From positions 1 through 35,979 of the forward strand of contig JAEOSU010000023.1 in the NCBI GenBank assembly GCA_016840165.1: 35,979 nt of DNA. Reading direction: 5' to 3'. Within the stretch, counting starts at the first letter, position 1. Each line of letters opens with the position of its first letter. The DNA is from Promethearchaeota archaeon. GTDB taxonomy: Archaea > Asgardarchaeota > Lokiarchaeia > Sigyniarchaeales > SOKP01. A program made the position numbers and the translations under genes. The notes under the pieces are model-generated. The model was not told the origin of the DNA. It saw only the letters and a program-made list of their open reading frames with translations, and did not search any database. Positions 24,609 to 32,811 of this stretch are shown piece by piece.

Positions 24609-26042
24609 ATGGTAGAAACAAATAAGAACCTTGAAGAAATGGACTTCCTTCCATATGAACCCCGTATGGAACCTTCAGCACCAGATTCTCTTTCTGTAAA
24701 AAGGACCATATTCATTTCTTTTGCCTTTTTTATCGTGTTGTTAGCTTGGTCATACTTTAATTTTAAAGTTCCACTTTTAATTAGTGATATTTTAGGTGAA
24801 GGCTATCCATTTCTTGATTTAATTAAAGGCTCAATAATGGCTATAGATAACATTGTTGCAGTTATCCTACAGCCTTATTTTGGAGATCTCAGTGATAGAA
24901 CAAAAAGTAGAGTTGGAAGGCGAATGCCCTACATCATTGTTGGCACTCTTATCTCAGCGGTATTCTTTATTACAATTCCATTCGTACAGGTTTTGGCTGG
25001 ATTTGTTTTAGTTATTTTTCTTTTTGACTTAGCTATGTCAATATATCGCTCTGCATCAATAGCTATTCTCCCTGATTACACCCCTCAGAAAGTCTATTCA
25101 AAAGGGAGTGCAATCCAACAATTCATTGCGAATTTAGGGGGACTCATCGGGTTCATCATACCTATTGTGGTTGGAGCAATTCCAGGTTTATCTGGTGTAT
25201 TGTTTGATGCATTAGGATTTATTATCGTAGGAATATTGATGGTTGTTTTACTTGGAGTTCTTATATTAACGGTAAAGGAAACGCCTACAGGGGATAAATT
25301 CTTGAAAATCTCAGATAAAAAGATCGATATAGACCCCATTTCTTATAAAGCAAAAATATCAAGAGAACCAATAAAAGAGGCGAAAATGAAAGGCAAGCGA
25401 TTCATCTCCTACCGCCAAACTGTAAAAATTCTCAGAAGCCACCGAGATTTTGCTTTCTTTGTTGCGACAGTCTTTTTTATGTATTTAGCTTTCGCTTCAG
25501 TTGAATCTTTCTTCTCAAGTTTTGCAATAGATTATATAGGTATCACCGAAGGAGAAGCAGCGACACTATTTATTGCTTATTCTGGGCCAATGATACTAGT
25601 TGCATATTTTGTAGGATTGTTGGGGCAATGGAAAAAAGTTGGAAGACGGAATGCAGTGAAGATATATTTACTATGGTTAATAATTTCTGTTTCTTTAATG
25701 GCATTCTTAATCGTACCGTCGATTTATAAAAACCATCAACCACTATTGGTTATGATTATGCTAGCACTGACTTCAATACCTTGGATGGGATTCATCGTTA
25801 TCAGTTTTTCTATATTATGGGCATTAGCTCCCGAAGGAAGGAAGGGAATCTATACAGGTATTTATTATACCTTTAACCAAGCAGCATATGCATTAGCTCC
25901 TGTGATATTTGGTGGAATTCTTACCTCAGTCTCATTTCTTTCAGATTATCGCTATATTGTAATGTTTCCCTTCATTTTAATTTGCATTGCTATTGCGTTC
26001 CTCCTATTTATTCCCATAAAAGGCGGCGAAGTAAAAGAATAA
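24609..26042 (+). CDS. MFS sugar transporter (SLC45/MalT-like)
   Basis: QPYFGDLSDRTKSRVGRRMPY and about 12 TM segments. Confidence 0.87.
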   Translation: MVETNKNLEEMDFLPYEPRMEPSAPDSLSVKRTIFISFAFFIVLLAWSYFNFKVPLLISDILGEGYPFLDLIKGSIMAIDNIVAVILQPYFGDLSDRTKSRVGRRMPYIIVGTLISAVFFITIPFVQVLAGFVLVIFLFDLAMSIYRSASIAILPDYTPQKVYSKGSAIQQFIANLGGLIGFIIPIVVGAIPGLSGVLFDALGFIIVGILMVVLLGVLILTVKETPTGDKFLKISDKKIDIDPISYKAKISREPIKEAKMKGKRFISYRQTVKILRSHRDFAFFVATVFFMYLAFASVESFFSSFAIDYIGITEGEAATLFIAYSGPMILVAYFVGLLGQWKKVGRRNAVKIYLLWLIISVSLMAFLIVPSIYKNHQPLLVMIMLALTSIPWMGFIVISFSILWALAPEGRKGIYTGIYYTFNQAAYALAPVIFGGILTSVSFLSDYRYIVMFPFILICIAIAFLLFIPIKGGEVKE

Positions 26043-30140: not shown

Positions 30141-31583
30141 ATGCCAATTGGTATAAAAAGTTATGGAGCATATTTGCCAAAATATTTGCTCCCAAGAGAT
30201 CTCATCTCAAACGCGTGGGATTTTCCAAACGTACCTGGCACTAAAGCATTTGCCCTGGCGGACGAAGATACTATAACAATGTCTGTCGAAGCTGGGTTAG
30301 ACTGCTTAGCGGGATTTGACCCAAAAACCGTTGATGGTCTATTTTTTGCATCGACGACTCAAGTATATACCGAAAAAGATTCAGCGTCACTCATTGCCAC
30401 TGTATTAGACATGAGAGAGAATATTATTACTGCTGATTTTACTGACTCCACAAAAGCCGCTACAACCGCAGTTGCACGAGCAGTAGATACTATAAAAGCA
30501 AATGACGATATTAAATCTATTCTTATTGTCTCTGCAGATACCAGAAAACCCGAACCCTCGACTATGTGGGAATTTGGATTTGCTGATGGCGCTGCAGCCC
30601 TTTTAATCGCCGAAGAAGATAATATCCCACTGTCCATCGAAGATTATTATTCGTTTTCTGCAAATGTGACTGGCCCATGGAAACGCGCTGATAAAGATGA
30701 GTTTATTCGAACATTTGAACCGAAGACTGATGCCATGTTTTATACACAATATATTACTAAAGCAATGGGAGAAATTCTTAAACGAAATAATCTCAAGCCA
30801 GAAGAAATTGATGTTGCAGCATATTATTATAACAATCCACGCATGCATGGAAGAATCTCTAAAATAATGAAGTTTAATCAAGGAGTTGCTCAAAATAGCC
30901 TCTTCTTTCAAATTGGGGATACAGGAACTCCTATGCCCTTCATGCTCCTTATCGCCGCATTACGACGACCTAAAGATGATGCAAAAATCATCATGGCCGG
31001 ATTTGGTGATGGTGCAGATGCTATCCTACTGCAAGTGAGAGATAGAAGTGCACTCCGAGACCTTGGAAAAACTCGATTAGGACTTATCGGTCACCAAAAA
31101 TCAATGATTGCCACTAAAAATTATAACAAACTTCTTGACTCAAAAGAGTTGCTCGAAAAAGATAGATATATCCGAAAAAGCTCTGCAGTGCTAATCTGGA
31201 GAGACACCGCCTCCGTTTATAGATGGTACGGTTTGAAATGTAAAAATTGCGGTGCTGTTCAATATCCTGACATGCTTCGTTCCTGTTATGTCTGTCGTGC
31301 TGACGACCAACTCGAACATGTAAAATTAGCGCTTAAAGGGACGATTTTCACTTACACATTAGACCATCTCGTTGGAGGTTCCTATCTGCAAACTCCCGTA
31401 CCTCGCTGTGTTATCGATCTTGATGGCGGAGGACGTGTGCTCTTGAATATGTCCGAAATTGAGAAACCCGAAGAAAATGTAGAAATCGGGATGCGAGTCG
31501 AGCTTACCTTCCGAAAAGAACATGAAGGTGCTGAATTTAAGAACTATTATTGGAAATGTCGACCCGAAAGGGGGAGACCATAA
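30141..31583 (+). CDS. HMG-CoA synthase-like thiolase-fold domain fused to DUF35 (Zn-ribbon + OB-fold)
   Basis: GIKSYGAYLP, DEDTITM, FFAST, GDTG and GFGDGAD. C-terminal CKNC...CYVC, GTIFTYT and VEIGMRVELTFR. The catalytic Cys position reads DSTKA. Confidence 0.85.
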   Translation: MPIGIKSYGAYLPKYLLPRDLISNAWDFPNVPGTKAFALADEDTITMSVEAGLDCLAGFDPKTVDGLFFASTTQVYTEKDSASLIATVLDMRENIITADFTDSTKAATTAVARAVDTIKANDDIKSILIVSADTRKPEPSTMWEFGFADGAAALLIAEEDNIPLSIEDYYSFSANVTGPWKRADKDEFIRTFEPKTDAMFYTQYITKAMGEILKRNNLKPEEIDVAAYYYNNPRMHGRISKIMKFNQGVAQNSLFFQIGDTGTPMPFMLLIAALRRPKDDAKIIMAGFGDGADAILLQVRDRSALRDLGKTRLGLIGHQKSMIATKNYNKLLDSKELLEKDRYIRKSSAVLIWRDTASVYRWYGLKCKNCGAVQYPDMLRSCYVCRADDQLEHVKLALKGTIFTYTLDHLVGGSYLQTPVPRCVIDLDGGGRVLLNMSEIEKPEENVEIGMRVELTFRKEHEGAEFKNYYWKCRPERGRP

Positions 31584-31597
31584 AGGAGGTTGAAAAA

Positions 31598-32811
31598 ATG
31601 AGAAAAGGAATTAAAGACCAAGTTGCAATAATCGGCTGCGATATGACCAAATACGGCGAGCGATGGGATAAGAACCAATATGACCTGCTCTTTGAAGCGT
31701 TCCAAAGCGCTCTAAAAGACGCAGGTGTTCAGAAAGATGACATAGATGCTTCCTGGTGCGGGATATTCTACTATTTCACAGGTCTCTCTGGAGCTATGGT
31801 GGAAGATATTTTACGTTTGGATGGTAAGCCTGCAACTCGGGTAGAAAATTACTGTGCATCGGGAATGGACGCTTTCCGTAAATAATTTCACATTTCGTGA
31901 ATAAGCGGAATGCTAGTTTTGCTGTAGCGTCCGGTGCCTATGATATAGTACTTGCTTGTGGCGTAGAGAAGCTCATGGACGAGGGCGGTAGTGGTCTGCC
32001 GGGATTTACGATTTTTGGTCACCCTGTTTATCCGACACCTTCCGCGCCGGCGATGTTCTCGATGGCTGCTACCCGAAGCTTTCACGAATATGGATGGACT
32101 AAAGAGGATCTGGCGAGAGTTGCGGTTAAGAATCATGATAACGGAGCCGATCACCCAAAAGCACACTTCCGAACTCGTGTTACTGTAGACCAAGTAATGA
32201 AAGCACCTATGATCGCAGACCCACTGGGTAGATTTGACTGTTGTGCGATGTCAGATGGAGCGGCTGCATTGATTTTGACGCGACCTGAGTTAGCAGAAAG
32301 TTATGCTCATGCGGACGATTATATTTTAGTTAAAGCTAATGCCATTTCCGCGCGAACTAACTTTCCATGGTACATCCCACCGAATGGTCCTGGAGCAGAC
32401 TTCACACACTTCCCAGCGACCACGAAAGCCGCAGAATATGCCTATAAAGAAGCGGGAATTACTGATCCTCGCAAACAAATCGATTGTGCGGAAGTTCATG
32501 ACTGTTTCACAATAACCGAGTTAATAAATTGCCAAGATTTACAATTCTGCGATCGAGGACAAGCTGCTGAGGAACTCAAGAATGGAACATTCAACTGGAA
32601 TGGAGAAACAGCCGTGAATCCTTCAGGAGGGCTAAAAAGTTTTGGTCATCCGATTGGTTCTACTGGTTGTCGTATGCTCACGGAAATTACCAAACAACTT
32701 CAGGGAAGAGCCGAGGGACGCCAAGTTCCGGACGCTAAGATTGGTTTATGTCACAATCTCGGTGGTGCGTTTAGTGTCTGTTCAGTTACCGTATTAGGCC
32801 AAAGAGATTAA
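31598..32811 (+). CDS. Acetyl-CoA C-acyltransferase (SCP2/archaeal-type thiolase), interrupted by a 29-nt insert
   Basis: RBS AGGAGGT and ATG 31598. The 5' part ends RVENYCASGMDAFR and the 3' part resumes RNASFAVASG...GVEK...EVHDCF...GHPIG..HNLGG in another frame. Deleting 31877-31905 gives a 394-aa ORF. Confidence 0.85.
31877..31905 (+). other. 29-nt intervening sequence in the thiolase gene
   Basis: CGTAAATAATTTCACATTTCGTGAATAAG. Contains a TAA stop and a TTCAC/GTGAA hairpin, and is bounded by a CG direct repeat. Confidence 0.8.

Follow-up and report, generated by a model that had tools for sequence, protein, structure and literature searches.

A predicted tRNA-type mini-intron in a mevalonate-pathway thiolase gene of a Promethearchaeota archaeon

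We examined a 35,979-nt stretch of DNA from a Promethearchaeota genome (the window), in which a thiolase gene is read in two pieces on the forward strand. The gene upstream of it (30141–31583, +), identified from its open reading frame with Pfam and NCBIfam, encodes an HMG-CoA synthase-like protein fused to a DUF35/BbsA-type OB domain; Pfam OB_ChsH2_C covers residues 394–458, and the C terminus gave a BbsA-like match. Against the NCBIfam HMG-CoA synthase model NF003274 this protein scored 166 bits, under the cut-off of 244. The OB domain is part of the HMG-CoA synthase polypeptide here and a protein of its own in many archaea. HMG-CoA synthase and DUF35 proteins are presumably the usual partners of the archaeal thiolase in the first mevalonate steps (the archaeal thiolase/HMGCS/DUF35 complex).

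The first piece of the acetyl-CoA acetyltransferase (thiolase) gene, denoted exon 1 (31598–31881, +), matches positions 1–91 of the Pfam Thiolase_N profile in a frame that can be read directly. It holds 94 codons, among them the catalytic-Cys motif CASG, and the first two nucleotides (AA) of an Asn codon. Exon 2 (31911–32811, +), assigned through NCBIfam NF004810 and Pfam Thiolase_C_1, extends from the last base of that Asn codon through the stop codon; by itself it matched NF004810 (acetyl-CoA acetyltransferase) over profile positions 98–398 of 400 with 387.8 bits. Pfam placed the rest of Thiolase_N and then Thiolase_C on this second piece. In the unspliced reading, the frame that opens at ATG 31598 runs into a TAA at 31883–31885, and the remaining 300 codons lie in another frame, which ends with the stop codon at 32809–32811 (+). 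An uninterrupted orthologue in a congeneric genome (G019) scored 510.7 bits against NF004810 and passed the cut-off of 403 as a full-length match. The initial annotation had described a 29-nt insert that splits a thiolase after the catalytic Cys and leaves both halves otherwise intact; frames and Pfam matches bear this out, and removal of the insert restores CASGMDAFRNASF. The genome that contains the window (G000) also encodes eight thiolase-like paralogues with 27%–34% identity. They are located on contigs C30, C54 (five places), and C4 (two places), such that five share one contig.

The insert was found in independent Logan contigs from three studies, all of which span it without gaps. Contig X3 (another sample, probably of the source study) covers 31598–31949 with 0 differences, X5 (a different study) covers 31598–31999 with 0 differences, and X9 (a third study) covers 31822–31992 with 10 differences. 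An allele lacking the 29 nt was not seen in the contigs of four runs, where rare variants are dropped in assembly. Most aligned copies from relatives, on the other hand, are empty at the window's site. The search for further copies within the genome came back negative, with no second copy of the 29-mer at up to three mismatches in 3.6 Mb.

We located the insert boundaries using the geometry of bulge-helix-bulge (BHB) motifs, namely, a 4-bp exon–intron helix, a 3-nt bulge on each strand, an inner stem-loop, and a cut after the second bulge base, as stated for cbf5 (PMC2738675). This geometry predicts an intron at 31882–31910 (+). In its central helix H, the exon strand CCGU (31876–31879, +) forms four of four pairs with the intron strand GCGG (H'; 31905–31908, +). 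Next to the helix lie a 5' bulge AA|A (31880–31882, +; predicted cut 31881/31882) and a 3' bulge AA|U (31909–31911, +; predicted cut 31910/31911). The inner helix h' with its loop (31883–31904, +) begins immediately 3' of the first bulge and stops immediately 5' of H', with 31883–31891 pairing with 31897–31904 around a 5-nt loop (31892–31896). In the window this helix has 7 pairs, one mismatch (A31884/A31903, an unpaired A.A), and one bulged base (U31887), compared with 8–9 bp in two homologous introns described below (G017 and L071). The outer exon–exon helix h amounts to a single G.U pair. Joining 31881 to 31911 yields GCU UUC CGU AAU GCU, or AFRNASF, within a 394-aa frame that contains the invariant CASGMDAFRNASF. 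In DNA letters the predicted product reads TTC CGT AAT GC, with the junction ...TTCCGTAA|TGCTAG..., and the peptide spanning the junction would be …YCASGMDAFR / NASFAVASGAYDIVLACGVEK. The Arg codon is thereby the CGU of exon 1, and the Asn codon is split as AA|U.

The coding sequence alone leaves the register ambiguous: Because the 5' CGTAA|A mirrors the 3' CGGAA|T, all shifts from 0 to +5 encode AFRNA, and the intron at 31882–31910 corresponds to +5. The initial annotation had counted three equivalent registers where there are six, and had set the insert boundaries 5 nt too far 5' of the position to which structure and comparison point. Its three registers are those in which the Arg is still encoded by the downstream CGG, and the BHB fit was missed for that reason; a strict BHB, sought by hand in these three, had given no fit. 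In the +5 register, CGG 31906–31908 belongs to the intron strand of the central helix and does not encode the Arg. A CG target duplication and an empty site TTCCGGAA, both described earlier, are products of the register chosen. Both the TTCAC/GTGAA hairpin inside the insert and the self-complementarity of its flanks are present as described, and the flank palindrome turns out to be the pairing that extends the central helix in minimum-energy folds. An endonuclease-spliced micro-intron had been among the alternatives offered, qualified by the remark that 32 nt would be removed, and the Arg lost, in the only BHB-like register found. We find support for the mechanism but not for that register: The BHB whose central helix is paired 4/4 takes out 29 nt exactly and keeps the Arg. 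An insert that seemed noncanonical thus proves canonical once comparison has found the register.

How strict the motif is can be judged from the folds. Minimum-energy structures favor pairing of the AA of the 3' bulge with exon U31874–31875, which lengthens the central helix; in these models the 3' bulge may be relaxed and the motif HBh'-like instead of strict hBHBh'. A 1-bp h combined with the h' seen here is in keeping with the relaxed HBh' class, a type of substrate accepted by (alpha-beta)2 enzymes (PMC5829648). The plain minimum-energy fold of 84 nt (z = −1.7) has a different structure and is uninformative for a motif that is recognized by protein. An exon–exon helix taken from that fold (GGACGCU/AGCGUCC) was rejected, as it showed no covariation among orthologues.

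We estimated how often such a structure arises by chance, using all genome positions and lengths of 29–31 nt. The combination of H 4/4 and an h' of at least 7 of 9 pairs occurs at a genome-wide rate of 2.9e-3, or ∼0.02 over the six registers of the window, and the rate falls to 6.1e-4 and 5.8e-5 for an h' of at least 8 and at least 9 of 9. The corresponding figure for L071 (8 of 9, one register) is ∼6e-4; these rates are rough, and the homologous introns are not mutually independent. The five further intron sites of the gene, described below, pass independently. Considered alongside the exactness of the predicted junctions, the rates make coincidence an unlikely source of the BHB fit. A genome-wide BHB scan (both strands, 3.6 Mb, candidates whose removal fuses two long open reading frames) showed no enrichment, with 1185 candidates observed versus 1206 expected under independence at lax settings, and 1–7 versus 1.4–5 per length at strict settings. 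The scan is underpowered, since its strict stem setting misses the very intron of the window, and we draw no support from it. One of its candidates, at window position 25715, lies inside an uninterrupted 477-aa open reading frame and was dismissed as a false positive.

Homologous introns of 29 nt occupy the identical site (site A) in G017 (L008, also L166) and in contig L071. The introns of the three carriers are identical at 17–20 of 29 positions. Pairing holds in 35 of the 36 cells of an alignment of the three sequences (A1), as against 25%–44% when the partners are slid by 1–3 columns as a control; changes are two-sided in two pairs and one-sided in another two. For the inner helix alone the count is 23 of 24, with one compensatory pair and two one-sided changes, in what is a small sample of three sequences for covariation. 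The pair C31876:G31908 is replaced by U:A in both G017 and L071, a compensatory change. The central helix of G017 is accordingly UCGU/GCGA, with an inner stem of 8–9 pairs, and L071 has an identical central helix.

The register is settled by L071. Its intron ends in CGAAU|U at the 3' side, so that only the BHB cut yields AFRNA, whereas registers 0 to +4 yield AFRIA; AFRNA is invariant, being present in 87 of 87 full-length orthologues. In L071 a UGA immediately following AAU closes the upstream frame, and a UAG 22 nt farther on precedes the point where the downstream frame opens, which rules out ribosomal frameshifting as a way of joining the two.

The exon bases at site A vary as well. The Arg codon is CGT in all three intron carriers and in 33 of 83 intron-less alleles, a difference that is not significant; as a pattern in sequence, the bias is suggestive of exon adaptation to helix H. 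A separate comparison involves G009 (L014), which is intron-less, and G017 (L008), which has two introns. The exon between sites A and B is nearly identical in the two, and they differ at the exon bases of helix H (AGG AAC vs. CGT AAT, and GGAA vs. GGAG). This pattern suggests either that conversion tracts are very short or that exon bases have been selected for their ability to pair.

We aligned the gene across 16 genomes of the same genus, 80 metagenome contigs, and 80 further species genomes (with Promethearchaeota or Promethearchaeia titles). BHB introns of 29–31 nt were found at five more sites, at reference positions 271 (L067, L096, L097, L102, L103, L163), 344 (site B; L008, L016, L064, L071, L082–84, L166, L177), 622 (site C; L015, L016, L029, L030, L042, L065, L082–84, L142, L177), 890 (L009, L016, L064, L065, L082–84, L148, L177), and 1034 (L089). 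This brings the intron positions in the thiolase gene across relatives to six, with up to three introns per gene (e.g., in G016). At the five further sites, H has 3–4 of 4 pairs and the inner stems 7–9 of 9, with the predicted cuts at the in-frame junction. The junction at site 622 is unambiguous, as a conserved Met codon is rebuilt from A|UG by RNA joining only. Every interrupted whole-gene copy, the three-intron genes included, gives a frame of 390–396 aa once the BHB introns are removed, compared with unspliced frames of 147–309 residues. Among the 87 full-length rows, ten are free of introns throughout the relevant region. Contig X9, from a relative in a marsh metagenome, has a site-B intron at window positions 31970–31972 that has no counterpart in the window's gene; this insert is 32 letters long, and its loop is unlike those of the G017 and G016 versions.

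Both thiolase exons are under purifying selection, judging from substitution patterns. Compared with orthologues, the window had a pN of 0.05–0.11 and a pS of 0.76–0.83 (synonymous sites are saturated) over both exons; against the closest relative, pN was 0.086 for exon 1 and 0.042 for exon 2. Intron-bearing relatives compared with their intron-less sisters had a dN/dS of 0.02–0.07.

From this evidence we infer, with a probability of roughly 85%, that 31882–31910 is an endonuclease-spliced mRNA mini-intron of the tRNA type (BHB) in a thiolase of the mevalonate pathway. The strongest competitor, though an unlikely one, is a pseudogene, in which the unspliced 29 nt inactivate the thiolase and one of the eight paralogues does the work. 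The very existence of these paralogues speaks for it, as does the inner stem of the window, the weakest among the three homologous introns; yet both exons are intact and strongly constrained, and the gene follows immediately upon that of its HMG-CoA synthase/DUF35 partner. The intron has, moreover, been retained with compensatory changes across three lineages that have diverged, the genes of relatives that carry two or three inserts are otherwise free of defects, and the insert geometry yields exactly the invariant peptide. We consider programmed bypassing, the second alternative in the initial annotation, to be very improbable. Here the ribosome would take off at CGU or AAA, skip the hairpin, and land on CGG or AAG. 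The layout has some appeal, with a stop two codons past the Phe followed by a hairpin, and in both the window and G017 a ribosome hopping 29 nt from CGU to CGG would produce AFRNA. But no take-off/landing pair is conserved: The equivalent CGU-to-CGA hop in L071 gives AFRIA (Ile for the invariant Asn), the AAA-to-AAG hop is not conserved, and CGU is in any case not identical to CGG or CGA. Sites 344 and 622 have no matched codon pair, the split Met codon at site 622 cannot be mended by a hop, and the BHB geometry common to the six sites is not needed for a bypass.

Two further readings are more improbable still. Splicing in the 32-nt BHB-like register, with a GCUU/AAGC helix and UCC and GGA bulges, would produce AFNASF; a 4-bp helix with flanking 3-nt bulges can indeed be drawn there in the window, but this register deletes an Arg that is invariant in the 87 orthologues, and its helix is only 3/4 paired in G017, whereas that of the +5 register is 4/4 paired in all three carriers. 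It also has no abutting inner helix, leaving a gap of 7–8 unpaired nucleotides between bulge and stem. We give similarly little credence to a DNA transposon footprint, or a repair or assembly artefact, with no role at the RNA level, even though the insert is short and has apparent 2-bp direct repeats as well as an imperfect internal repeat. The apparent CG duplication depends on the register, and an element remnant with a 2-bp target duplication, as proposed earlier, is at odds with both this and the lack of another genomic copy. The internal repeat, an imperfect one with a 19-nt spacing that had been cited for an artefact, is not kept in the two homologous introns (G017, L071). These introns of other lineages preserve structure and not sequence; their presence, together with that of the insert in the assemblies of three studies, excludes an artefact.

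If the insert is a BHB intron, the genome should encode the means to remove it, and we found two EndA genes (PF01974; in the C14:37158 and C4:49673 regions of G000) and one RtcB gene (PF01139). The first EndA paralogue has the Tyr, His, and Lys positions, and its best matches to solved structures include chains of crenarchaeal splicing endonucleases (3p1z_B, 3ajv_B, and 2zyz_B) that are presumably the catalytic subunits of heterotetramers. The second is 32% identical to the first and lacks the His, as would a structural beta subunit; the catalytic triad positions are presumed from the M. jannaschii enzyme. Asgard archaea have an (alpha-beta)2 EndA with an L1 loop and a broad substrate range (PMC5829648). 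ARAGORN called only 13 tRNAs in this genome, which is 99.7% complete, and eight of them have introns of 15–461 nt. Most tRNA genes of G000 are probably too interrupted to be called; the low count fits the many noncanonical tRNA introns and heavily interrupted tRNA genes described for Asgard archaea (bioRxiv 10.64898/2026.10.13.758758).

A plausible course of events can be outlined by analogy with tRNA introns and crenarchaeal cbf5 mRNA. The thiolase pre-mRNA can adopt a structure whose central helix is formed by exon CCGU and intron GCGG, with the bulges AA|A and AA|U and the inner stem-loop on its flanks; a heterotetrameric EndA would make both cuts, and the RtcB ligase would join the exons. 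Thiolase synthesis would thereby depend on the tRNA-splicing machinery. The intron itself may be a tolerated, possibly mobile genetic passenger with no known benefit.

Several known systems resemble this arrangement in part. Archaeal tRNA BHB introns, reportedly treated by Marck and Grosjean in 2003, and their rRNA counterparts are like the thiolase intron in motif, size range, and presumed use of EndA and RtcB, and differ in that the host RNA of the thiolase intron is an mRNA. The HAC1/XBP1 mRNAs undergo unconventional cytoplasmic splicing, with cutting by IRE1 and ligation by RtcB, and the XBP1 intron is 26 nt long. They share with the thiolase a tiny, frame-changing mRNA intron handled by an endonuclease and an RtcB-type ligase without a spliceosome. 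IRE1, however, recognizes paired stem-loops, and XBP1 splicing is regulated by stress, whereas there is no evidence of regulation for the thiolase. Bypassing elements are known from T4 gene 60 and as the byps of Magnusiomyces (yeast) mitochondria. They too are short noncoding gaps with a stop codon and a hairpin near the gap start, but the thiolase gaps lack matched codons or would give a wrong residue and have BHB geometry instead.

The closest parallel is the crenarchaeal cbf5 pre-mRNA (Watanabe 2002; Yoshinari 2006; Yokobori 2009, PMC2738675), whose intron is likewise short, interrupts a protein-coding region, and adopts a BHB or relaxed BHB fold. A hetero-oligomeric EndA cuts it after the second of the three nucleotides of a bulge, as we propose for the thiolase, and both introns are lineage-specific in presence and lost in some lineages. 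The thiolase case differs in gene and phylum (Promethearchaeota), in its six alternative positions with up to three in one gene, and in a patchy distribution among non-sister lineages; and whereas splicing of cbf5 was shown by cDNA, that of the thiolase is predicted. EndA-type splicing of a coding sequence is confirmed in print for crenarchaeal cbf5 only (PMC2738675), and our literature searches found no paper on BHB introns in Asgard coding sequences, including the six sites of this gene. If the prediction is correct, an Asgard archaeon must splice an mRNA before it can make a central enzyme of its lipid pathway, and an mRNA mini-intron ties metabolism to the tRNA-splicing machinery. Gene callers will list such genes as broken or split.

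The thiolase also offers a concrete setting in which the gain and loss of introns can be tested in the lineage nearest to eukaryotes. In a protein tree of the 87 copies, the site-A intron appears in three non-sister lineages, and their nearest relatives do not have it. Such patchy introns are either old, with many precise losses, or have moved between lineages into the same site. The site-B introns of G017 (L008) and G016 (L016) are identical at 29 of 31 positions and differ in the loop only, whereas their host genes show just 37% identity at four-fold sites; the version in L071 has diverged and includes compensatory changes. The likeness of the two site-B introns may reflect recent lateral spread. 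Together, the shared codon in non-sister lineages and the near-identity at site B may point to lateral gain, by homing-like transfer or reverse splicing, and not only to ancient gain followed by many precise losses. More tentatively, and with the odds against it, the 29- to 31-nt BHB introns could be mobile mini-introns that are actively spreading through protein genes of Promethearchaeota. If so, the closest archaeal relatives of eukaryotes would have a working and expanding system of split protein genes.

Finally, we noted that in one relative the complete thiolase gene is followed directly on its 3' side by an additional, incomplete copy corresponding to the 3' third of the gene (L138:2358–2732). 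The long match that it produces in the alignment was tried as an intron and rejected in favor of this partial gene copy.
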